DNA from: an uncultured Bacilli bacterium
Lineage (GTDB): Bacteria > Bacillota_I > Bacilli_A > RF39 > UBA660
Length of the DNA: 64,000 nt
Direction of reading: 5' to 3'
NCBI GenBank assembly: GCA_934167875.1
Contig: CAKPMC010000006.1
Coordinates: 16,646-80,645 of the forward strand
The notes beneath the pieces were generated by a model. That model did no database searches and had not been told where the DNA came from. It was given only the letters and a program-made list of their open reading frames with translations. Shown here piece after piece: positions 5,978 to 27,816 of the stretch. Every line of letters begins with the position of its first letter. The first letter of the stretch is position 1. The position numbers were made by a program, and so were the translations under genes.

Positions 5978-6087
5978 GGTATAAATAAAAGATTTATTTT
6001 AATGATAAGTGCAGTAGAAAGAAAAGTAAAAAATATAAATTAAAACAAATTTCATTAAAACCACTTGTTAAAAAGATAAAACAAAAA

Positions 6088-6513
6088 ATGTATCTTCCAG
6101 AGATGACAGTAGATGATTTCTTTACTACACAAGAAGAAAGAGATTTAAAAAGTAAAGAACACGTTGAAATGGTTGATATTAATGATATATCAGATTTTCC
6201 TAATCATCCTTTTAAAGTTATAGTAAATGAAGATATGTTAAATATGAGTAAGAGTATTGAAAAATATGGGGTGTTAGTACCGGCTTTAGTTAGACCAAAA
6301 GAAAATGGTAAATATGAAATGATTTCAGGTCATAGAAGAAAGAAAGCATTAGAAATTTTAGGAATACAAGAAATAGAAAAGATTACTGATAAATCTAGAG
6401 AAGAATTAATATTAACTAAAGAATCTGATAAAACTTACTGGTTTAATGGAAATTTAACTTATAATATTACTTTTAGGCTGAATATTTGCAATGACCATTA
6501 TTGGAGATATTAA
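6088..6513 (+). CDS. ParB/Srx-like N-terminal nuclease-domain protein, probably truncated
   Basis: VPALVRPKENGKYEMISGHRRKKALEILG matches the ParB N-terminal domain GxRR box. The C-terminal 30 aa is low-complexity with no HTH domain. Confidence 0.45.
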   Translation: MYLPEMTVDDFFTTQEERDLKSKEHVEMVDINDISDFPNHPFKVIVNEDMLNMSKSIEKYGVLVPALVRPKENGKYEMISGHRRKKALEILGIQEIEKITDKSREELILTKESDKTYWFNGNLTYNITFRLNICNDHYWRY

Positions 6514-6552
6514 ATTACTTAAGTGATTCTTTACTTATAAAAACCGATATAT

Positions 6553-7140
6553 TTAATAATTACTTTTTAATCTTTTTTGAATAATTTGGCTTTTTCGTTT
6601 CGTTTCATTTGTTAAATCTTCTAATGTGAATCCAAGCAATTGTGAAAGATATAGTATTTCTACTAATAATTTTTTTACAGTTTCTTTTTCAAGCTTTTGG
6701 ATTAAATCATTTCCTAATTTATAAAGTGTCAGAAATGTTTCTATAATATCTTTGTTACTTGTTGCAGAAAAATTTTCACTTAAAGATACATTTGTAATGT
6801 TACAAAAATATAATATCATAAATAAACAATCAATATATTCTTCTAATATATGATTTTTTTCACCAGTTTGATTTATTGACCAAAATTTAAAACATCTTGT
6901 TTCGTTAGCTAGTTCCCCAAATTCTACCAATAATTCAAGTTTATATTTTTTTATAATTTCAGGAGATTTGATATCAAATTGTAATGAAAATAAATCATCT
7001 AAATATTTTGTTTCTTTATATATTTCTTCTATGTTTAGCATAAATGTCACTTCTTTCTTAAAATCTATAGATTGATTATGAGTATTGTTAATTAATCGGA
7101 TTATATGATGTATTTTATCATTAAAATTAGTATTTAGCAA
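6553..7140 (-). CDS. all-alpha NTP-pyrophosphatase, dimeric dUTPase-like (tentative)
   Basis: Pattern ...LELLVEFGELANE..CFKFW....EEYIDCLFMILYF resembles dimeric dUTPase/MazG-like motifs, which are typical of phage and plasmid cargo. Confidence 0.3.
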   Translation of the reverse strand: MLNTNFNDKIHHIIRLINNTHNQSIDFKKEVTFMLNIEEIYKETKYLDDLFSLQFDIKSPEIIKKYKLELLVEFGELANETRCFKFWSINQTGEKNHILEEYIDCLFMILYFCNITNVSLSENFSATSNKDIIETFLTLYKLGNDLIQKLEKETVKKLLVEILYLSQLLGFTLEDLTNETKRKSQIIQKRLKSNY

Positions 7141-7430
7141 CTAACTGATGTTGTAACATACATCTAATGGAGATTTTGCTATGTTTCAAGATAATACTAA
7201 CTTAAACTTGTATAAATTATTTTATGATGTTGCTAAATAGGAAAGTATTTTAAATGTTGTTCAAAAAAATAATTGATATTACGGACACGGATTTAGAAAT
7301 TGAACATTATATCAATTAAATACCATAATAATAGAAAAGGGAGTTAAGATGACTTCCTTGTTTTATTGTAAAATAAGTGTTAAAATAAGTTACTAGAAAA
7401 CATTTAGTTTTACTTAGTTTTATTTAGTGT

Positions 7431-7463
7431 TATTTAGTAAATTTGTGGCCGGCATGTGTGTCC
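7431..7463 (+). repeat. cassette-boundary core, R-type copy 1 (TATTTAGTAAATTTGTGGCC...)
   Basis: Direct repeat shared with 7940, 9201, 9694 and 11228. Confidence 0.6.
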
Positions 7464-7571
7464 TATGCGTGTTCACAAAAAAAAGACCTATCAGTTAAGT
7501 GCTAGGCCACGAATTTTTGCTGATTGGACACGAATTTATTGGTTGATATGAGTCGTAATAAGGAGGGCATT

Positions 7572-7843
7572 ATGTTTAAATTAGAATCAAAATATACACC
7601 TAGTGGAGATCAACCACAGGCAATTAAGGAATTAGTAGAAGGAATTAAAGAAGGAAAAAGAGGCCAAGTTTTACTAGGGGCAACGGGGACAGGAAAAACT
7701 TTTACGATTGCTAATGTAATTAAAGAAGTTAATAAACAACCCTAGTACTTGCCCATAATAAAACACTTGCTGGACAACTTTATTCAGAATTAAAAGAATT
7801 GTTTCCAAATAATCACGTATGTTACTTTGTTTCTTATTATAGA
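7572..7843 (+). pseudogene. uvrB: uvrB 5' fragment A (promoter-proximal ~90 codons, frameshifted and truncated)
   Basis: [55 protein letters not shown] is near-identical to the N-terminus of intact UvrB at 11361. A 1-nt deletion near 7741 gives an in-frame stop at 7745, and homology continues in another frame to ...TTCTTATTAT at 7840. Confidence 0.8.
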
Positions 7844-7877
7844 AAAATCATAAAACCCCTTTTATTTCAATAATTTT

Positions 7878-7977
7878 AGTTTTATTTAATCCCTCGAAAA
7901 TACCATAAAAAGACTAAATAAAACTGGATAATGAAATGTAAATTTGTGGTCGAAATTCGTATTTATCCGTGTCTACT
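7878..7977 (+). repeat. L-type boundary: 13-bp-stem hairpin (AGTTTTATTTAAT...ACTAAATAAAACT) plus core AAATTTGTGGTCGAAATTCGTAT
   Basis: Near-identical 75-nt segment at 9655-9730. Confidence 0.6.
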
Positions 7978-8056
7978 AAAAAATTGAAAATAACGATAAT
8001 ATGTGATATATTATTAATCAATAAAAAGGGACTTTTTTAACATTGATGATTAAGGA

Positions 8057-9202
8057 ATGATTATAATGATTAAATATTATAAAGAACTAGAAAATAGATT
8101 GAATTATTATTTACCATTAGTAGATATTCAAGATAAAGGGAAAAAAGTATTATTTGATTATAAGACACCATTTTCATTTGTAGAAAAATATGAAGATTTA
8201 TTTAAAAATAGTGAATTTCTAATTACTATTTTTAAAGGGTTTAATATTGATGAATGGTTTCGAAATAATATATATATTGATTATGATAATGCCTGTTCTA
8301 TTTCTAGTGAATTTGAAAGTATAGAAGAAGAAATTTATTGCATATTAGAAGAATATGGGAAAATAAATTTTTCTTCTAGAGCAATAGAAAATTATTTATA
8401 TCTAATTAAAAGATTATCCATTTTATATATAGATTTATTTCCAAATAATAAACAATATTATACTTCACTTAATAATACAATAGTTGCAGCAATAGAAGAA
8501 TTAAAAAAATACAATACTATTCACTATATTCCAGATAAAGTAGATAATCTATATCAACCAGATGCATGGTATATAACACCTAATGGTTATTTATATAATG
8601 CCGGAAAATATGGACATAACGGTAGGGATTTAACGTTCAATTATAATAAAATGAAATATTTTATAAATAATAATGAAAATATATTAGACAATCATAAAAT
8701 TTCAAACGGATATTTAAATCTGTCTAAAAAAATAAAAGAAAATGGTTATATATCTGCAGGACAATTTAAGGTGTTTTTAAATTATATAAGTCAACCAGCC
8801 TATTTAGAGTCAATTAATGGAATACCAGTAACGAGAGAAAACCATATAATCCAATTAATTTTAGGTATAATTAATGCTCAAGCATGCTTTTATAGATTTT
8901 TTGAAGATTTATTTATATATACTGAAAAACCAGAAAATGAAATACATAAAATAATAAATTGGACTAATGATGATATAGGAGATGTATTAGTTAGGTGCTG
9001 TGGTTTTCATAAAATTGAATCAATGCTGGAAAAAACTATTACAACTAGTTGTATAAATTATGAAAATGAGTTGGAGGAATATATAAATAATGGGTGGAAC
9101 ATAGTATTTATACCACCATTTATTATTGATAAAGATAACCATTGTCTAAAAGAATATCCAGAAGATTTTTTAGTTATAAAAAGATTGTTGAAAACTATCT
9201 AG
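8057..9202 (+). CDS. hypothetical protein (381 aa), cargo of cassette 1
   Basis: Own TTGAAA-17-TATATT promoter at 7985-8013. No recognisable domain. Confidence 0.45.
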   Translation: MIIMIKYYKELENRLNYYLPLVDIQDKGKKVLFDYKTPFSFVEKYEDLFKNSEFLITIFKGFNIDEWFRNNIYIDYDNACSISSEFESIEEEIYCILEEYGKINFSSRAIENYLYLIKRLSILYIDLFPNNKQYYTSLNNTIVAAIEELKKYNTIHYIPDKVDNLYQPDAWYITPNGYLYNAGKYGHNGRDLTFNYNKMKYFINNNENILDNHKISNGYLNLSKKIKENGYISAGQFKVFLNYISQPAYLESINGIPVTRENHIIQLILGIINAQACFYRFFEDLFIYTEKPENEIHKIINWTNDDIGDVLVRCCGFHKIESMLEKTITTSCINYENELEEYINNGWNIVFIPPFIIDKDNHCLKEYPEDFLVIKRLLKTI

Positions 9203-9240
9203 TTTTATTTAGTAATTTGTGGCAAAATTCATCCTCATCC
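9201..9240 (+). repeat. cassette-boundary core, R-type copy 2 (AGTTTTATTTAGTAATTTGTGGCAAAATTCATCC)
   Basis: Direct repeat of the 7431 and 11213 elements. Confidence 0.6.
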
Positions 9241-9324
9241 AAAAAAAGACATATTTTTAATGTTATGAAAATAGATTAGGACACGAATTTGTTGGTTGAT
9301 ATGAGTCGTAATAAGGAGGGCATT

Positions 9325-9633
9325 ATGTTTAAATTAGAATCAAAATATACACCTAGTGGAGACCAACCACAAGCGATAGATGAGTTAGTTAAAGGAATAG
9401 AAAATGGCGAAAAACACCAAGTTTTACTAGGTGCAACTGGAACTGGAAAAACTTTTACGATTGCTAATGTAATTAAGGAAGTTAATAAACCAACCTTAGT
9501 ACTTGCCCATAATAAGACACTTGCGGGACAACTTTATTCAGAATTAAAAGAGTTGTTTCCAGAAAATCATGTATGCTATTTTGTTTCTTATTATAGGAAC
9601 CCATCGAAAACTATCTTATTCAGTACCTTTTAG
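9325..9633 (+). pseudogene. uvrB: uvrB 5' fragment B (in-frame 103-aa truncated copy retaining the Walker A GATGTGKT)
   Basis: [90 protein letters not shown], then diverges at the same TTCTTATTAT point (9594) as fragment A. Confidence 0.8.
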
Positions 9634-9730
9634 ATTTATTTAGTACCTCAAAGATACTATAAAAAGACTAAATAAAACTAGATAATAAAATGTAAATTTG
9701 TGGCCAAAATTCGTATTCATTCGTATTTAT
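9632..9730 (+). repeat. L-type boundary: hairpin (AGATTTATTTAGT...ACTAAATAAAACT) plus core AAATTTGTGGCCAAAATTCGTAT
   Basis: Parallels 7878-7977. Confidence 0.6.
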
Positions 9731-9822
9731 AAAAAATAATAAATTTAAACTAATATATTTTTATTATTTTTTTTGTAAGATTAAAGTTATAATAATAAAA
9801 ATATGATAAAATAATATGAGAG

Positions 9823-10533
9823 GTGATTTTAGTGAAATTAAATGATATTGAACAATTAACAAATGAAGAAATAGAAAAGATATATGAAAAATGTTTAGAA
9901 TATGCAAATAGAATTAAAAATCCAGATTTAAAGGAATGTTGTTTAGAAATTTATAATGATTATAAATCAAAACTTATAGCAAAACCAGCTACTGGAGATC
10001 CATGTCATCATTTTTTTAGAGGTGGTTTAATATATCATAGTTATTGCGTAACCAGAAATGCTATTATGATTGCAGAATTGTATGATTATATAAAATTAGA
10101 TATGGACTTAATAATATTTGGTTCATTATTACATGATATAGGAAAGACAAATGATTATAAAGATTTTGATTCTATAGAAAAAGGTGAAACAGGAATACTA
10201 AGTAGTGGTTCATATATGGTGGGTCATTCATACGAAGGAACTCATATTGTTGAAAATTATTTAGAAAAATATAATTTAGAAGATAAGTTTAAATATCAAG
10301 TTTTACATATGATAGGAAGTCATATGAAAGAATTTAGTGAATGGGGAGTATTAACATCACCAAAAATGTTAGAAGTAATAGTAATTAACTATGGTGATTC
10401 AATGGATGCTAGATTAGATAAAACAAGAAATGGTATTAATAATTCTGAAAAAGGTGAATTATATTATAATGAAAATCAAACGGCAAAATTTTATAAATCA
10501 ATAAATCCATATTACGAAAATGATAATTTATAA
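9823..10533 (+). CDS. HD-superfamily phosphohydrolase (YhaM-like HD domain), cargo of cassette 2
   Basis: HHFFRGGLIYHSYCV ... LLHDIGK ... HSYEGTH ... SHM ... D: an HD metal-binding motif series. Confidence 0.55.
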   Translation: MILVKLNDIEQLTNEEIEKIYEKCLEYANRIKNPDLKECCLEIYNDYKSKLIAKPATGDPCHHFFRGGLIYHSYCVTRNAIMIAELYDYIKLDMDLIIFGSLLHDIGKTNDYKDFDSIEKGETGILSSGSYMVGHSYEGTHIVENYLEKYNLEDKFKYQVLHMIGSHMKEFSEWGVLTSPKMLEVIVINYGDSMDARLDKTRNGINNSEKGELYYNENQTAKFYKSINPYYENDNL

Positions 10534-10663
10534 TTAAAATAAATATGCATCAAAAAGAAAAATTATAAAATATAAAAAAATATTCAAGAAGAAAATTTAA
10601 CTAATGATGGAATTAACGAGCTGATTATGGAACATTATATTTTCATAAATAAAGGAGTAAAAA

Positions 10664-11086
10664 ATGCAAAAAAAATTAAGTTTTATGACCTTGAATGATG
10701 TAAATATTGGAATAAGTAAAATTGAATTAAATAAATGGGATTTAATAATTATTGATAAATCTGGTAAATATTGTTTAAAAATCTGTGTGCAATATAATTG
10801 GAAAGATATCAATAACATAAAAACTGGTCAAAAACAAGAAATTGATTTTAACGAATATTGTTTAGCTGAAAACAATGAATCTGCTTTGATTTGGCCATCT
10901 AATTCCTATGTAGAAAAAATAAGTGATGATTCTATATGTTTTAATTTGGAATTTAAAAATTTATCTAATTCGACGCATTATATGAATAAAAGAGGTTGTT
11001 TTGATATTCAGTTAAATTCTCTTGAGGCTAAGGTTTTTATTGATTATAAAGATGCAATAGATGATTCTGTCATATATAATCTATAA
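10664..11086 (+). CDS. hypothetical protein (140 aa), cargo of cassette 2
   Basis: ORF with RBS AAAGGAG. No motif recognised. Confidence 0.35.
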   Translation: MQKKLSFMTLNDVNIGISKIELNKWDLIIIDKSGKYCLKICVQYNWKDINNIKTGQKQEIDFNEYCLAENNESALIWPSNSYVEKISDDSICFNLEFKNLSNSTHYMNKRGCFDIQLNSLEAKVFIDYKDAIDDSVIYNL

Positions 11087-11212
11087 AAAAAAGAAGTTGT
11101 TATGATAGAAAATAAAATAATGTATAATAATATATTGGAAGCATTAATTTTGCTTCCTTGTTTTATTATCAAAATAATGTTAAAATGAATTATTGAGAAA
11201 GACTTTAATTAC

Positions 11213-11360
11213 TTATTTTTATTTAATAAATTTGTGGCCGAAATTCGTATCCAAGAAAAAAAGATACATTTTTGATGCTGTAAAAATAGGTTAGGATACG
11301 AATTTTTAAAAATAGGATACGAATTATCTGGCTGGTAGTAGTCATAGTAAGGAGGACCAT
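11213..11360 (+). promoter_or_regulatory. uvrB upstream region: R-type core copy 3 plus dyad AAATTCGTATCC-N43-GGATACGAATTT(+GGATACGAATT), RBS AGGAGG
   Basis: Seen directly in the sequence. The same half-site GGACACGAATTT precedes both uvrB fragments (7526, 9279). Confidence 0.5.
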
Positions 11361-13319
11361 ATGTTCAAAATTCATTCAAAATATACACCGAGTGGTGATC
11401 AACCCCAGGCAATTAAGGAATTAGTAGAAGGTATTAAAGAAGGAAAACGCGACCAGGTTTTACTAGGAGCAACGGGAACAGGAAAAACTTTTACGATTGC
11501 TAATGTAATTAAAGAAGTTAATAAACCAACCCTAGTTTTAGCTCATAATAAAACACTTGCGGGACAACTTTATTCAGAATTAAAAGAATTGTTTCCTAAC
11601 AATCACGTATGCTATTTTGTATCCTATTATGATTATTACCAACCAGAAGCCTATGTTCCATCTACAGATACCTATATAGAAAAAGATTCATCTATTAATG
11701 ATGAAATTGATGAACTTCGTCACTATGCAACAAGCTCTCTTTTATCTTATGATGATGTCATTGTAGTAGCCAGTGTAAGTTGTATTTACGGTATTGGTGA
11801 AGTAGAAGAATATCGAAACAAAATGCTAAGCATAGGAGTAGGAGATAATGTAGAAAGAAACACTATCATGACGAAACTAGTAGAAATGATGTACGAAAGA
11901 AATGATTTTGATTTTAAGCGTGGTACCTTTAGAGTAAAGGGTGATGTTCTAGAAATCATACCAGCCTATGAAAACACAAAAGGGTATAGAATTGAGTTTT
12001 TTGGTGATGAAATAGATAGAATTAGTGAAATAGATTCTCTAACTGGAGCAGTTATTCAAAATAAAAAAACATTAACTATTTTTCCAGCCAGTCACTTTGT
12101 AACTAGTGATGAAAAACTAATAGAGGCAGTGAAAAGAATTAAACTAGAATTAGCTGATAGGATTCAATATTTTAAAGATAATAATAAACTACTAGCAGCA
12201 GAAAGAATAGAACAGCGTACAAACTATGATATAGAAATGTTAACTGAAACAGGATTCTGTCGTGGTATTGAAAACTATTCTCGTCATATGGCTTTACGTG
12301 GTGAAGGAGAAACCCCAACTACTTTAATGGATTTCTTTCCAAAAGATTTTTTATTAGTAATAGATGAATCCCATGTAACACTTCCTCAGGTAAGGGGAAT
12401 GTATAATGGTGATAGAGCTAGAAAAATGAATTTAGTAGAGTATGGCTTTAGACTACCAAGTGCACTAGATAATAGACCATTAAAATTTGAGGAATTTGAG
12501 AAAAAAATCAATCAAGTTATTTATGTATCAGCAACTCCAGGAGATTACGAATTAGAAAAGACTAGTAATCAGTTTATTGAACAAATTATTCGTCCAACTG
12601 GACTTCTTGATCCAACAATTGAAGTAAGACCAAGTAAAGGTCAAATTGATGATTTAATTGGTGAAATTAAAGCTAGAATTGCGAAAAACGAACGTACTTT
12701 AATAACCACTCTAACAATTAGAATGGCAGAAGAATTAGCGAATTACCTAAAAGATATTGATATTAAAGTGGCATATTTACATAGTGAAGTAAAAACATTA
12801 GAAAGAATGCGCATTATTAGAGATTTAAGATTAGGTAAATATGACTGTATTGTTGGAATCAATCTATTACGTGAAGGAATTGATATACCAGAAGTTAGTT
12901 TGATAGCAATTATGGATGCTGATAAAGAAGGATTCTTGCGTAGTGAAAGAAGTTTAATTCAAACAATTGGTAGATGTGCTAGAAATGCTAGTGGTCATTG
13001 TATTATGTATGCTGATAAAATAACAGACAGTATGGATAAGGCTATTAAAGAAACAATGCGTCGTCGTACAATTCAGGAAGAATATAATAAAGAACATGGT
13101 ATTACGCCACAGACAATCAAAAAAGAAATTAGAGATTTAATTAGTAATGTCGATGACAACAAAGAAAAACAAACATCTCCTAAGAAGAAAGATAAAAAAG
13201 AATTATTAAAAATGATAGATGAAATCGAAGAATCTATGAAACAAGCAGCAAAGGAATTAGATTTCGAACGTGCTATGCAGTTAAGAGATGCATTATTTGA
13301 ATTAAAGAGTGAATTATAA
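11361..13319 (+). CDS. uvrB: excinuclease ABC subunit B
   Basis: Full-length 652 aa with helicase motifs, beta-hairpin region [10 protein letters not shown], and C-terminal UvrB-UvrC interaction domain ...[10 protein letters not shown]... Confidence 0.95.
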
Positions 13320-14158
13320 TGAAAAAGTTTAAGAAAATATATATAGAAATCACGAATATCTGTAATCTTAATTGCTCTTTTTGTAGTAAAGATAATCGTA
13401 TAAAAGAAAGTATTTCGCTAACGAATATGGAAGAACTATTAAAGAAAATTAATGATTATACGGATTATGTTTATCTTCATGTAAAAGGTGAACCATTACT
13501 ACACCCAAAGTTAAAAGAAATCTTAGATTTATGTGAAAAATATCATAAAAAAGTAAATATTACGACGAATGCTACACTTCTAAAATCCAAAGAAACAATC
13601 CTATCTCATACAGCTATTCGCCAAATTAATTTATCAGTACATAGTGAAAATCAAGAAAAAAATTATTTAGAAGAAATCTTTGAAGTAACTGATAAACTGA
13701 AAGAAAAGAATATTGTTTATCGTTTTTGGACTATGAATGATAATAATCTAAATAAAAAATCAACAGAATTAGTGGAAAAAATAATAAATCATTACAAGTT
13801 GTCCCCAGAAATTGTGGAAAAAATAAAAACAGACAACAATATTAAAATAAATAGTAACACTTATGTGAATAAAGCTAATCAATTTGTTTGGCCTAATATT
13901 AATAATGATTATTATAACGATAAAGGATATTGTTACGCTTTAAAAGATCAATTAGCTATTTTAGTAGACGGTACTGTTGTACCATGCTGTTTAGATAGTG
14001 ATGGCATCATTAATTTAGGAAACATTTATAGTAATACTATAGAAGTTATTATAAATAGTAGTCGCTATCAAAAAATGAGAAGTGGTTTCTGCAATCGTAA
14101 AGTAACTGAAGAACTATGTAAACACTGTAGTTACAAAGAAAGATTTGACATTAATTAA
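13319..14158 (+). CDS. radical SAM / SPASM-domain enzyme (279 aa)
   Basis: CNLNCSFC (CxxxCxxC) near the N-terminus plus GEPLL. The C-terminal Cys-rich region PCCLDSDG...CKHC is SPASM/twitch-like. ATG overlaps the uvrB TAA. Confidence 0.65.
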   Translation: MKKFKKIYIEITNICNLNCSFCSKDNRIKESISLTNMEELLKKINDYTDYVYLHVKGEPLLHPKLKEILDLCEKYHKKVNITTNATLLKSKETILSHTAIRQINLSVHSENQEKNYLEEIFEVTDKLKEKNIVYRFWTMNDNNLNKKSTELVEKIINHYKLSPEIVEKIKTDNNIKINSNTYVNKANQFVWPNINNDYYNDKGYCYALKDQLAILVDGTVVPCCLDSDGIINLGNIYSNTIEVIINSSRYQKMRSGFCNRKVTEELCKHCSYKERFDIN

Positions 14159-14188
14159 ATTATAAATATAATAGAAAAGGTGATTTGA

Positions 14189-14656
14189 ATGAAAATAGTA
14201 CAAAATGAAGTATGTTATGTAGAAAGAGAAGATATTTATAATTTAAGAATGTTTCCTCAGTATGTTGTTTCTGAAATTAACTTTAGATCTAATTCTAAAT
14301 ATATAAAATTTGAAAATCCTAGATCAATAAATTATTTCTCAGAAAGTGATTTTATAATCGACTATACTGAAATATGCAATTTATCATTAGCAGAAATAAC
14401 TCTAAAGATAGAAAAATTAAAACAAAGTTTAAGTAATTTAGCTGGTGAATGGTTATATGCTTCTGAAAATTTAAGAGAAAGTTTGGATAGGAATAGAGAT
14501 TATAATTATAAAATTAAGTCAATTAAATACATACTAATGTCTATGGAAAAATATATGAATAATAAAGAAACTTATGATGAAGAAATAGAACAGTTATCAT
14601 TTACTAAAAGTAAATTAAAAGAACCTATAAAAGCTTTAGAATATCATTATCAGTAA
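14189..14656 (+). CDS. hypothetical protein (155 aa)
   Basis: ORF with RBS AAAGGTG. Confidence 0.35.
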   Translation: MKIVQNEVCYVEREDIYNLRMFPQYVVSEINFRSNSKYIKFENPRSINYFSESDFIIDYTEICNLSLAEITLKIEKLKQSLSNLAGEWLYASENLRESLDRNRDYNYKIKSIKYILMSMEKYMNNKETYDEEIEQLSFTKSKLKEPIKALEYHYQ

Positions 14657-14726
14657 GATATTGACATGATTGCTTATATATAGTAAAATAATCCTCCTGA
14701 TTAAAATTAGGAGAAAAGGTGATTAT

Positions 14727-15023
14727 ATGGGTATATATAATAAAGTATATATAGGGCATGTTGAAACAGTTAATCTTGATGTAAGTGTACACCAATCACC
14801 AATAGAGTCTAAAGTAATTGCACTCCAATTGAATAATATTGATAAAAACAGAAATATTATAACTTATAAACCATTAAGACAATATAGTGAATATTATAAG
14901 TTAGTTAGTGTAGAGGAAAAACCATTAACAGGTACTTTTGGTAATATTGTTGGTGATAAGGATATTAATTTTGCCTTAAAGAAAACTGGAAAACAGGAAG
15001 TAAAAAAACTGAGAAAGTGTTAA
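14727..15023 (+). CDS. hypothetical protein (~98 aa; track ORF 14670 probably starts at the internal Met after RBS AGGAGAAAAGGTG)
   Basis: ORF only. Confidence 0.3.
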   Translation: MGIYNKVYIGHVETVNLDVSVHQSPIESKVIALQLNNIDKNRNIITYKPLRQYSEYYKLVSVEEKPLTGTFGNIVGDKDINFALKKTGKQEVKKLRKC

Positions 15024-15107
15024 ATGCACTTTCTTTTTCTATAAACATTTAACTGATTGCTATAAAGAACTTATTTTGTTAAAATTGTTGTAAAGGAGAG
15101 GAATGAA

Positions 15108-15497
15108 ATGAAAAATAGACAATATAAATTATTACTATTTTTTGGATTGTTAGTAATGTACTATATCTTTGCTTTAAACAATATAACCATTCCTTGTTTA
15201 TTTAATAAGATAACTAATTTATATTGTCCAGGATGTGGTGTTACCAGAATGTTATTATCCATTTCAAAATTAAATTTTTACCAAGCCTTTAGATATAATC
15301 AATTAGTATTTATATTTTTGCCCTTTATTTTATTACTATTAATAGACTTTTTATTAAAATGGCTGAAGAATCAAAATAATTACATATATTTAAGAATAAA
15401 TAATAAAGTATGGGTAGTTTTGTTAATAATCGTTTTAGTATTTGGAATACTAAGAAATATTCCCCTCTTTGATTATCTAAAACCAATTATTATATAG
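15108..15497 (+). CDS. small membrane protein, DUF2752-like (CPGCG motif)
   Basis: LYCPGCGVTRM plus 3-4 TM segments. Confidence 0.35.
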   Translation: MKNRQYKLLLFFGLLVMYYIFALNNITIPCLFNKITNLYCPGCGVTRMLLSISKLNFYQAFRYNQLVFIFLPFILLLLIDFLLKWLKNQNNYIYLRINNKVWVVLLIIVLVFGILRNIPLFDYLKPIII

Positions 15498-15619
15498 GAT
15501 TATTTATTTGAAAAGTTACTTAGCTGGGTAACTTTTTTAAATACAAATAATTAATTGTCTTGTCAAACAAATGTTTCATTGATATAATAAAAATGTATTT
15601 TCATAAAAAAGAAAATTTG

Positions 15620-26365: not shown

Positions 26366-26758
26366 ATGAAAGTAAGATATTATATTGTTGAAAACTGTTA
26401 TGAGTTTATAGATACCTTGGAAAGAGAATTATGTCAAAAAGGTATTTCATATGTAAGAATAGATACAGAAATTCATTTTTTAGATCAAATTATTAGATTT
26501 TTAGACTTCGATCTTGATATGGATTTAATAGTAAAATTATATTTTTCTAAATTAGAGCTAAGATCAACTAATGACATTACTTTGTTTACTGATCTAAATC
26601 AAAATGATTATTTAGATTTTATACCACAAAATAATACTTATCAACAATATCATACAAAATTTACACACAATAATCATACTTATCAACAGCTAAATAAAAG
26701 AATGTTAAAAAATCAATCAAACAATGCCAATCAAAAATTAAAAAGGTATAAAAAATAA
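26366..26758 (+). CDS. hypothetical protein (130 aa)
   Basis: ORF with RBS AAAGGAG. Confidence 0.3.
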   Translation: MKVRYYIVENCYEFIDTLERELCQKGISYVRIDTEIHFLDQIIRFLDFDLDMDLIVKLYFSKLELRSTNDITLFTDLNQNDYLDFIPQNNTYQQYHTKFTHNNHTYQQLNKRMLKNQSNNANQKLKRYKK

Positions 26759-26781
26759 GATATCCACAATTTTGTGGATAT
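26759..26781 (+). terminator. perfect palindrome GATATCCACAATTTTGTGGATAT (copy 1)
   Basis: Immediately follows the stop at 26758. The identical palindrome recurs at 27787. Confidence 0.4.
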
Positions 26782-26799
26782 AAATATATATCAATTTAA

Positions 26800-26830
26800 T
26801 TGACAAAATCCCCCGGGGGGGGGGTAGAAT
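26800..26830 (+). promoter_or_regulatory. sigma-A-type promoter TTGACA-19-TAGAAT with a C5G10 homopolymer in the spacer
   Basis: TTGACA at 26800-26805, spacer AAATCCCCCGGGGGGGGGG (19 nt), TAGAAT at 26825-26830, RBS AAGGGAGG, ATG at 26859. Confidence 0.55.
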
Positions 26831-26858: not shown

Positions 26859-27779
26859 ATGGAAAATAAACAAAAAAGTAAATTAGGTTTAGGAATATTA
26901 ATAGGAGTACTAATTGCAGTTATTATTTTACTTACGGGATATATTGTTTATGATAAAGTTATAGCCAAAGATAAAAATAATACTGAAGAAAAAAATCAGG
27001 ATAATATTACTCCAACGAATACTCCAGCTGAAATATCAAAAACAGAACCAGTTAATTTGAATGATGAAAAAATATCAGCCTTAATAAGTTATATAATGAA
27101 CGTTTATGATAATGAAACTGAAATGTATGGAACATATAAAGTAGAAACTGGTCGTAATAAAGTTGGGTTATTCTATCATAAAAATGATAAACAAATAATT
27201 GATAATATAGATTCTAATGTTAAATTAGAAATGTTATCATCAAAAATATACAATGAATATATGAAATCTCTAGCATCATCAGGAGTATATGAAAAAACAT
27301 TTACCAAAACAGAAATTGATAAATTATATCATGAGTTATTTGGATCACATGCAAGTAGCATAAAATATACTAGTAATACCTGTCCAACATTAAAAGAAGA
27401 AAATGACAAAGTACAAGTAATGAGTAGTTGTGGTAATGTTATTGGGCCAGGATTTCACTATTCTATTTTAACTCAATTCTATAAGGCTGAAAAAACCAAT
27501 GATGAATTATATTTATACCAATTAGTTGGTTATCCAAAATACGATGACGAAAATGATACTAATATTCCACATAATATTGATGATAGTTTCATCATATATA
27601 AAGATTATGATTTAACTACTAAAACATCAGGTACTAATACTAATTTAGGAACGGCTAATGAAAATGGTGGTTATAACTATGATTTAACTAAAATTAAAAG
27701 CGAATTAGATAGTTATAAATATACTTTAAAATTAGAAAATGGTAACTATTATTTCTATAGCGTCGAAAAGGAAAAGTAA
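26859..27779 (+). CDS. N-terminally membrane-anchored extracellular protein (306 aa)
   Basis: Basic N-terminus and TM helix LGLGILIGVLIAVIILLTGYIVY, then a Thr/Asn-rich linker and a globular region. Confidence 0.45.
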   Translation: MENKQKSKLGLGILIGVLIAVIILLTGYIVYDKVIAKDKNNTEEKNQDNITPTNTPAEISKTEPVNLNDEKISALISYIMNVYDNETEMYGTYKVETGRNKVGLFYHKNDKQIIDNIDSNVKLEMLSSKIYNEYMKSLASSGVYEKTFTKTEIDKLYHELFGSHASSIKYTSNTCPTLKEENDKVQVMSSCGNVIGPGFHYSILTQFYKAEKTNDELYLYQLVGYPKYDDENDTNIPHNIDDSFIIYKDYDLTTKTSGTNTNLGTANENGGYNYDLTKIKSELDSYKYTLKLENGNYYFYSVEKEK

Positions 27780-27786
27780 AATAAAA

Positions 27787-27816
27787 GATATCCACAATTT
27801 TGTGGATATCTTTTTT
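27787..27816. terminator. bidirectional rho-independent terminator: palindrome GATATCCACAATTTTGTGGATATC + TTTTTT (copy 2)
   Basis: Sits between convergent genes, A-run before and T-run after. Confidence 0.55.

Follow-up and report, generated by a model that had tools for sequence, protein, structure and literature searches.

Repeated boxes upstream of uvrB in an uncultured Bacilli bacterium: putative arm-type integrase sites of small mobile cassettes at codon 90

Short repeated boxes, two of which form a dyad, stand immediately upstream of the DNA-repair gene uvrB in a 64-kb stretch of DNA from an uncultured Bacilli bacterium (the whole stretch is called the window below), and the question raised by this locus is what such a reiterated site does in front of a repair gene. 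The initial annotation had offered operator half-sites of a damage-responsive or other regulator on the one hand, and recombinase arm-type sites on the other. Our comparisons favour the second option, because in relatives an integrase gene adjoins the box-bearing module, members of the integrase family have an arm-binding N-terminal domain, and boxes flank the crossover on either side and change with the lineage of the element. The boxes are very likely a cis-acting sequence borne by an element and not a host operator and, as read from the sequence, they probably act in the P arm of attR as integrase-binding sites of the arm type. The elements appear to be small mobile cassettes that insert successively at uvrB codon 90 and replace the promoter and the first 90 codons of the gene. 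The family is found in uncultured low-GC Bacilli, and several of the samples are Hadza stool metagenomes. In the following, L-numbers denote contigs of relatives and P-numbers denote integrase-family proteins from sequence collections.

Repeated boxes in a stack of three elements

The left half of the dyad, AAATTCGTATCC at 11241-11252, has its exact reverse complement, GGATACGAATTT, at 11294-11305. The inverted partners are exact, as first described, but the spacer between them measures 41 nt (11253-11293) and not 43 nt. A third half-site was found as GGATACGAATTA at 11315-11326, with its first 11 nt as previously given. Related 12-mers precede every other uvrB copy in the window, as had been proposed, with GGCCACGAATTT at 7505-7516 and GGACACGAATTT at 7526-7537 in front of the truncated fragment A, and GGACACGAATTT again at 9279-9290 in front of the truncated fragment B; the variant reported near 7294 is GGACACGGATTT at 7283-7294. 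When the window was scanned with the 12-mer, matches with 0-1 mismatch were confined to 7283-11326, and 20 matches with up to two mismatches were found against 11 expected, 12 of them within the 4-kb stretch of the array. The exact sequence AAATTTGTGG has five copies in the window, all on the + strand, of which four (7439, 7940, 9694 and 11228) are in the array and one (15613) is at the uvrA promoter. AAATTTGTGGCC also belongs to the box variants, as its reverse complement, GGCCACAAATTT, shows. Together, the boxes follow a consensus of ~11-12 bp, G-N-N-(A/C/T)-A-C-(G/A)-A-A-T-T-T.

These boxes are parts of three elements stacked at uvrB codon 90, each with a left junction (LJ) and a right junction (RJ). 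Three uvrB 5' ends are present, namely 7572-7840 (fragment A), 9325-9594 (fragment B) and that of the intact gene (11361-13319), and all lose homology past TATTAT at codon 90. A conserved LJ of ~135 nt follows each truncated copy and contains an inverted TAGTTTTATTTA pair and then a site that we call S, which reads AAATTTGTGGYC-RAAATTCGTATYY-ATYCGTRTY. Each truncated copy is accordingly trailed by reverse-orientation boxes (7940-7973 and 9694-9728), three in tandem at 100-135 nt past the crossover. The RJ is ordered as terminator hairpin, extended -10 promoter, phased TTATTTAGT repeats, S with reverse boxes, a spacer of ~40 nt, two forward boxes, a conserved block preceding the ribosome-binding site (RBS), the RBS and the uvrB ATG. 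There are two reverse boxes at S (three in some lineages), and one further box is located within the integrase 3' end of elements that still hold an integrase gene. The reported dyad is composed of the inner reverse box of S (GAAATTCGTATCC, 11240-11252) as its left arm and the first forward box (GGATACGAATTT) as its right arm, both in RJ2, within the replacement uvrB leader (Table 1). In seven RJs of several lineages the two forward boxes lie ~45-75 nt 5' of the RBS-proximal ATG, with a spacing of 21-22 bp in six of the seven and of 12 bp, adjacent, in L053.

In the window, S also occurs at 7439, 7940, 9213 (degenerate) and 9694. Pattern scans of genome and metagenome collections added seven further contigs, L004, L005 and L046-L050, all of low GC content (0.23-0.30). 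S adjoins uvrB or a uvrB fragment wherever neighbouring sequence is present (L046 is too short to tell). Two other motif-scan matches, in a viral contig (L002) and in a genome (L003), lie inside GC-rich coding regions and were discarded as chance matches. A comparison of the uvrB N-terminus with viral contigs gave ordinary uvrB and helicase relatives, and no phage with the junctions was found among them.

A second repeat, TTTTATTTAG/A, is located directly upstream of every S (7405-7438, 9196-9212 and 11209-11227). In RJ its copies are phased at ~10 bp, in LJ they make up inverted pairs (7876-7889/7912-7925 and 9632-9648/9666-9679), and 6 of its 15 window matches fall in these junctions. It could be an excisionase site, a host-factor site or a bent-DNA tract.

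Lineages of boxes, box-free leaders and the adjoining integrase

The leftmost uvrB leaders of four relatives (L049/L047, L051/L054, L068 and L069) have a TTGTTT-17-TGNTAAAAT promoter and a leader of ~25 nt without boxes, and on sequence grounds they are taken to be the native uvrB leaders. The promoter arrangement is kept in these box-free leaders and in the RJs of all lineages. In accordance with a 5' end supplied by an element, uvrB of the window and of L049, whose UvrB protein is 98% identical to that of the window, are 87.8% identical before codon 90 and 95-98% identical after it, which is the mosaic expected in that case.

The absence of boxes from these presumably native leaders with the same promoter speaks against the earlier suggestion of a damage-responsive or other host regulator. 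In that explanation the boxes would be operators of an SOS-like regulator of uvrB, and it can draw on their position upstream of uvrB, on the sequence GACCATATGTTC at 11355-11366, which resembles a Cheo-type LexA box, and on the recurrence of AAATTTGTGG at the uvrA promoter. Boxes are nevertheless present after truncated copies, where there is no uvrB gene to regulate, one copy lies inside an integrase gene, the boxes are carried by a horizontally mobile cassette, and they do not fit the Cheo pattern. A systematic scan of the window for GAAC-N4-GTTC with at most one mismatch gave 11 matches against 12 expected, in agreement with the earlier statement that no Cheo-type LexA box precedes uvrB. 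The sole match near uvrB is GACCATATGTTC, which spans the RBS and the ATG and differs from the Cheo consensus GAACATATGTTC by one mismatch. It is common to the copies of one cassette (the HD cassette, element 3 of the window) in L066, L069 and L070 and does not occur in fragments A and B or in L068, and a match of this stringency is at chance level. At uvrA, AAATTTGTGG at 15613 does run into TATAAT (with overlap of TGnTATAAT), as had been noticed for an extended -10 there. No partner box lies near this 10-mer, and coincidence is its simplest explanation, with ~0.3 copies expected from composition by our own estimate. Moreover, restriction to this locus had been named as the finding on which a regulon would fail, and within the 64-kb window the boxes are restricted to the locus, so that the regulon fails as far as it is testable here. 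We therefore regard an SOS-like operator as extremely improbable.

Box copies of one element change jointly between lineages. The GGATACGAATTT type is found in RJ2 of the window, L004 and L050, and the GGACACGAATTT type in RJ0 (the RJ of element 1) and L049, including the copy inside the integrase coding end. In L051 and L054 the boxes read (T/G)GCAACGAATTT, again with the copy at the integrase 3' end, and S reads AAGTTTGTGAC-TTTTATGTGTKGC in LJ as well as in RJ, while L053 and L059 have CGTTACGAATCC and GGATACGAATTT forward and ATTCGTAACG reverse. Joint shifts of direct, inverted, coding-embedded and other-arm copies point to a shared DNA-binding protein, not to a hairpin. Among six independent LJs, no nearly invariant stretch is longer than the block TAAATTTGTGG-C-AAATTCGTAT, and similarity ends directly after the box block.

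The hairpin deserves separate consideration, since the inferred promoter (11158-11186), with a predicted transcription start near 11193, lies upstream of the boxes, which are thus probably located in the transcribed leader, between the inferred -10 (11181-11186) and the RBS. The dyad could then form a long-range RNA hairpin that tunes translation or stability of the replacement uvrB mRNA. The predicted minimum-energy fold indeed pairs 11236-11252 with 11294-11310, and reverse and forward boxes co-vary between lineages. However, the folding energy is ordinary (z = -1.4; 18 of 200 shuffles did equally well), and neither RNA folding nor DNA folding of the leader rose above background. The co-variation extends to direct repeats, the integrase-gene copy and the LJ copies, none of which has a pairing partner, and the boxes of LJ are in one orientation only. 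A role of the dyad as RNA hairpin is hence very unlikely.

A candidate for the shared protein is encoded next to the RJ of relatives. The order in L049 is box-free uvrB 5' fragment, LJ, parA, a parB_N-Spo0A_C fusion, an 869-aa open reading frame (ORF), a tyrosine recombinase gene, terminator, RJ and intact uvrB. In the window, 7266-7318 is the 3' remnant of a recombinase gene of this type and 6083-6348 is a remnant of its parB, segments of element 1 are 82-85% identical to parB, the integrase end and RJ of L049, and in the strain-level relative L062 an integrase ORF is still located at the place of element 1. A protein search with the L049 recombinase gave 142 relatives. In every fetched context that extends past the gene (L051, L053, L054-L057 and L059), the integrase gene lies directly upstream of uvrB or of a uvrB fragment of ~90 aa, and arrays of two or three elements are frequent. 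A tyrosine recombinase gene thus lies immediately upstream of RJ in L049, L051, L053, L054-L057, L059 and L062.

Full-length members of this family (P0043 with 408 aa, P0039, P0085 and P0114) have an N-terminal Arm-DNA-bind_4-like domain followed by SAM-like and catalytic domains. The match to Arm-DNA-bind_4 (PF14657) reaches 26.9 bits in P0114, above the cut-off of 22.3, and ~17 bits, below this cut-off, in P0039, P0043 and P0085. The AlphaFold2 (AF2) model of P0043 has an N-terminal beta-sheet with a helix at residues 10-65 (predicted local distance difference test, pLDDT, ~90) and then the SAM-like and catalytic domains. The structures closest to this model are Tn1549 Int and full-length lambda Int, the latter aligned over 392 columns, and the best PDB match of the catalytic domain by sequence is Tn1549 Int (6EN0, E = 9e-5). 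According to these models, full-length members have a lambda-type three-domain architecture with an N-terminal arm-binding domain.

Other proteins of the elements must also be weighed as ligands of the boxes. The boxes could be operators or centromere-like sites of the ParB_N-Spo0A_C fusion, an excisionase or a repressor, and would then control partition, parAB expression or excision and not integrase binding. In L049, ParA and ParB_N-Spo0A_C are encoded directly downstream of the LJ boxes, a ParA-ParB pair also follows LJ in L054, L059, L066, L068 and L070, and tandem repeats 5' of parA are typical of plasmid partition operators. The Spo0A '0A box' is TGTCGAA, and the box core ACGAA has CGAA in common with it; this likeness comprises just 4-5 nt. 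On the other side, the boxes are kept without parAB in elements 2 and 3 of the window, in the Fic cassette of L005 and in the second element of L054; L054 and L059 have boxes although their ParB proteins gave no Spo0A_C match; and the integrase gene is the sole gene consistently located beside RJ. An accessory protein of this kind is a rather unlikely ligand in our judgement. As a separate observation, the fusion protein of the full-size element (L049 7340-8275, - strand, beside ParA) joins an N-terminal ParB domain to the C-terminal DNA-binding domain of Spo0A (Pfam E = 2e-39) and matches PHROG families of unknown function.

Table 1. Features of the element array and of the uvrB leader in the window
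Feature	Position	Strand	Details
Element 1, decayed	6083-7840	+	ParB_N remnant (6083-6513); dUTPase gene on - strand (6553-7140); by Pfam
Integrase 3'-end remnant of element 1	7266-7318		Includes box GGACACGGATTT at 7283-7294; terminator at 7337-7359
RJ0 of element 1			S 7439-7474; forward boxes 7505-7516 and 7526-7537; then frameshifted uvrB fragment A 7572-7840
Element 2, '378-aa cassette'	7841-9594	+	LJ-A, one ORF, truncated RJ1, uvrB fragment B (9325-9594); without integrase; 1.75 kb
Boxes and ORF of element 2			LJ-A boxes 7940-7973; 381-aa ORF of no recognised family 8057/8066-9202
Truncated RJ1			Degenerate S 9213-9239; single forward box 9279-9290
Element 3, 'HD cassette'	9595-11630	+	LJ-B, cargo, terminator, RJ2, uvrB codons 1-90; without integrase; 2.04 kb
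LJ-B (P' arm)	9595-9728	+	Variable 30 nt, inverted TAGATTTATTTAG / CTAAATAAAACTAG pair, three reverse boxes
Reverse boxes of LJ-B			AAATTTGTGGCC 9694-9705; AAAATTCGTATTC 9706-9718; ATTCGTATTT 9719-9728; 100-135 nt after break
Cargo of HD cassette			HD-domain gene 9823-10533; 140-aa ORF 10664-11086
Terminator hairpin of cargo	11137-11157	+	Followed by inferred uvrB promoter
Inferred uvrB promoter	11158-11186	+	-35 TTGTTT (11158-11163), 17 nt, extended -10 TGtTAAAAT (11178-11186)
Site S of RJ2	11228-11252	-	Two adjoining reverse boxes: AAATTTGTGGCC (11228-11239), GAAATTCGTATCC (11240-11252)
Forward boxes of RJ2	11294-11326	+	GGATACGAATTT (11294-11305), GGATACGAATTA (11315-11326); 21 bp start to start
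Pre-RBS block, RBS and start codon	11329-11363	+	Block CTGGCTGGTAGTAGTCATAGT; RBS AAGGAGG (11349-11355); uvrB ATG (11361)
Intact uvrB	11361-13319	+	652 aa; first 90 codons element-derived, now chimeric
Crossover region in uvrB	11616-11635	+	Codons ~86-92, TTTGTATCCTATTAT|GATTA

Spread of integrase-less cassettes and the proposed route of integration

Elements 2 and 3 keep LJ and RJ without a recombinase gene, stacked with the decayed, integrase-bearing element 1. The segment 9595-11360 (LJ-B, the HD gene, the 140-aa ORF and RJ2) is 99-100% identical in L066, L069 and L070, placed after uvrB codon 90 in all cases. Flanking genes of L069 and L070 differ, and the uvrB body of L069 is only 73% identical to that of the window, so the same cassette is found in unrelated backgrounds. 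The HD cassette's own uvrB 5' copy is 94-99% identical among these three contigs. Within the species of the window, L061 is without the HD cassette and L068 is without the 378-aa cassette. Judged by this distribution, the elements behave as an accretion array like those of cis-mobilizable elements (CIMEs), and a 2-kb element without a recombinase is still able to spread between genomes.

Several properties of the retained uvrB copies are recorded here in their own right. Fragments A (7572-7840) and B (9325-9633) keep RBS and ATG, and the promoter is kept at A and absent at RJ1 upstream of B. Fragment B is an open frame of 102 aa with a Walker A motif that reads into LJ, and fragment A is frameshifted near 7737. 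The 5' end of intact uvrB (11361-11630) is chimeric. Over its first ~25 nt (MFKIHSKY) it agrees fully with the copy that belongs to the HD cassette, and past this point it is the species-typical version, as in L068. There, the entire RJ after the HD cargo has been exchanged for the RJ0 type, and the breakpoint falls in the shared promoter. Both the chimera and the RJ swap look like gene conversion from retained upstream fragments, which possibly restores the native UvrB N-terminus; retained 5' fragments seem to be the donors through which the N-terminus regains its species-typical sequence. An identity drop near the uvrB ATG relative to L066, L069 and L070 was considered as a second recombination site in RJ and rejected, since the switch lies ~25 nt inside the coding sequence and fits gene conversion.

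Movement of cargo could in principle use S itself. In such an exchange S would be a recombination site, S x S recombination would move cargo in an integron-like manner, and the dyad would be a folded or duplex substrate. Direct-orientation S sites flank every cargo, single-stranded DNA of the dyad can fold into a 12-bp stem (z = -2.1), L059 has two inverted S-type boxes, 7 bp apart, just past the break, and the HD cargo is followed by a different RJ in L068. However, conservation reaches ~100 nt to the left of the S in RJ, over terminator, promoter and phased repeats, and ends right of the S in LJ, and this asymmetry indicates one element from LJ to codon 90 and not a cassette between two S sites. 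No S site is present upstream of the leftmost uvrB fragments, for which reason a crossover at S in place of codon 90 was also rejected. In addition, the HD cassette moves with its own uvrB 5' copy, the integrase matches the lambda/Tn1549 type better than IntI, and the break of the L068 hybrid lies inside the shared promoter, which, like the chimeric uvrB 5' end of the window, agrees with homologous gene conversion. The sites also lack the features of integron attC, because the integrase is not of IntI type and the boxes of LJ are in one orientation only. Exchange between S sites is consequently improbable.

As the comparison of relatives shows, the elements insert into uvrB at codon ~90 by tyrosine-integrase site-specific recombination. 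Each element keeps uvrB alive with a replacement promoter, RBS and codons 1-90 and leaves the old 5' end truncated, and repeated insertion into the sole intact copy has led to the three-element stack. Architecture, association with the integrase, joint change of the boxes by lineage and horizontal spread of the integrase-less cassette are established by comparison, while binding of integrase to the boxes and their part in recombination are inferred. According to the arm-site reading, the boxes would be bound by the N-terminal arm-binding domain of a lambda/Tn916-type integrase, and bridging of arm sites to the uvrB core would allow integrative and excisive complexes to assemble. The cassettes of elements 2 and 3 would be cis-mobilizable and rely on the integrase of a related element. 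The circular attP is expected to read integrase - terminator - promoter - S - forward boxes - RBS - uvrB(1-270) - core - LJ - S, and its recombination with the core of intact uvrB would give the observed junctions. Only the intact copy has uvrB on both sides of the core, hence newcomers should land beside it and the newest should be closest to uvrB, an order that fits the increase of decay to the left. The repeated sites flank the crossover on either side and, apart from TTTGT, have nothing in common with the core, TTTGTATCCTATTAT|GAT. Alternative types of element, with Tn7-like ends (TGTGG terminus) or hairpin ends of IS200/IS605 type, were considered and rejected, because the duplication of 270 nt of uvrB, an adjoining tyrosine integrase and leftmost leaders free of boxes are in keeping with site-specific integration.

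Several observations weigh against the boxes being arm-type sites. The main weakness is the distance of the RJ boxes from the crossover, ~320-400 bp, which arises because the 270-nt uvrB 5' copy intervenes; arm sites of the characterised lambda and Tn916 attP are nearer the core, within ~200 bp. Unlike the RJ boxes, those of LJ, at +100 to +135, have the usual distance of arm sites. The Fic cassette of L005 and a Fic-encoding element upstream of the uvrB fragment of L048 have no recognisable RJ box set, thus the RJ set is not universal and is not required for uvrB expression. Core-type integrase sites around the crossover were not recognised by eye. Lineages differ less in TTTGTGRC, the first S box, than in the remaining boxes, and it may be a separate kind of site. 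No full-length integrase of the window's own lineage (the GGAYACGAATTT lineage) was recovered, the integrase copies of L049 and L062 comprise the catalytic domain only, and P0006 and P0009 are without the arm-binding domain. N-terminal truncation of many integrase copies, including all of those nearest to the window lineage, suggests widespread decay.

In L059 (10504-10532) the S-type box is arranged as an inverted pair with a 7-bp spacer (AGTCACAAAAT-GGCTAAT-ATTTTGTGGTG) right after the uvrB break, the uvrB side of which reads ATTTTGTCTCC. This arrangement hints that TTTGTGRC may be a core-type rather than an arm-type site.

Known systems, significance and other features of the window

The elements are of a known kind, with a lambda/Tn916-type integrase, arm-type repeats and CIME-like tandem accretion. 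What is unusual is the uvrB 5' target, the location of P-arm boxes in a gene leader, and the tiny but widely spread integrase-less cassettes. In lambda Int (P1/P2/P'1-3) and Tn916/Tn1549 Int (DR2) sites, several repeats of 10-12 bp are likewise present in both arms that flank the core, with the P' side in tandem at about one helical turn and the P side in both orientations. The integrases share arm-binding, core-binding and catalytic domains, and the integrase gene abuts the P arm. Unlike in those systems, the P-arm boxes here are in the probably transcribed leader of the target gene, and a 270-nt 5' copy with its RBS stands between them and the core. In sequence, the boxes bear no relation to the arm sites of lambda or Tn916.

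An integrative element in the 5' part of a DNA-repair gene is also reported for Streptococcus pyogenes, where SpyCIM1 is said to reside in mutL. Both are islands of a tyrosine integrase in the 5' region of a DNA-repair gene of Firmicutes. The difference is that here a complete substitute 5' end restores the gene, which remains intact, and that our data gave no evidence of growth-phase excision or of a mutator switch.

CIMEs are elements that have lost their integration genes, keep attL and attR, and accrete in tandem at one att site (PMC5704250). In the ICESt1/ICESt3-CIME family at fda of Streptococcus thermophilus, as here, integration genes are lost, att ends are kept, elements are stacked at one target, and newcomers enter the att site that holds the intact end of the target gene; the expected route is mobilization in cis or in trans by a related integrase-bearing element (PMC5704250). 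Three differences were found. The target here is the 5' part of uvrB at codon 90 and not the 3' end of a gene, so each element has to supply promoter, RBS and 90 codons. With 1.75 and 2.04 kb and no more than one or two cargo genes, the cassettes are very small, and one of them is near-identical across genomes with uvrB differing by 27%.

Integron arrays share the ordered stack of short recombinase-less cassettes, a conserved recombination end and the position of the newest cassette beside the insertion point. Unlike integrons, the present elements have a lambda/Tn1549-type integrase, sites that are not attC hairpins and 270 nt of target duplicated per cassette, and there is no fixed platform with attI and a Pc promoter. 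It is conceivable, though unlikely, that uvrB codon 90 is an integron-like collection point in gut Bacilli where ~2-kb integrase-less cassettes are exchanged between distant genomes. Such cassettes would be defined by a left end of ~135 nt and a right end of ~200 nt, and be served in trans by an integrase of lambda/Tn916 type. If this were true, every capture would swap the promoter, the leader and the N-terminal 90 residues of an essential-pathway repair protein, and occupancy of the leader boxes by integrase or accessory proteins could couple uvrB expression to the state of the mobile element.

No earlier description of integrative elements targeting uvrB was found in the searchable full-text literature. 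The present comparison identifies uvrB codon ~90 as an integration target and describes an integrase family whose left and right ends are conserved. It also indicates that a plausible 'operator' before a repair gene is more readily read as a footprint of mobile DNA, and that annotation of a uvrB regulon or promoter in these gut Bacilli would otherwise go wrong. Each insertion turns UvrB into a chimera, which offers a small, testable case of conflict between mobile elements and a core gene.

As to cargo, a search with PADLOC, Pfam and PHROGs recognised the HD domain alone and matched no known defence system. The HD protein has weak Cas3-HD-like PADLOC matches and one PHROG family of unknown function. 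Exact copies of this protein (9832-10533, 233 aa) are present in 102 blocks of the public collection, many of them Hadza gut metagenomes, which shows that the cassette is common.

The interval between uvrB and uvrA (13319-15497) contains a radical SAM/SPASM gene, two ORFs of no recognised family and a DUF2752 protein. The start of the radical SAM/SPASM gene overlaps the uvrB stop, and weak matches to PADLOC pVip models come from its radical SAM domain. In L054 uvrB is directly followed by a holin-like gene and lgt, and in L069 by lgt. This interval may be a second variable region.

Farther downstream, the palindrome ATATCCACAATTTTGTGGATAT occurs at 26758-26781 and 27788-27813, on either side of a 306-aa ORF (26859-27779). 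Its half-site resembles a DnaA box (TTATCCACA), and the second copy is followed by a T-run and is terminator-like. In the intergenic region upstream of this ORF, a homopolymer of C5 and then G10 (26812-26826) could be a phase-variable tract or an assembly artefact.

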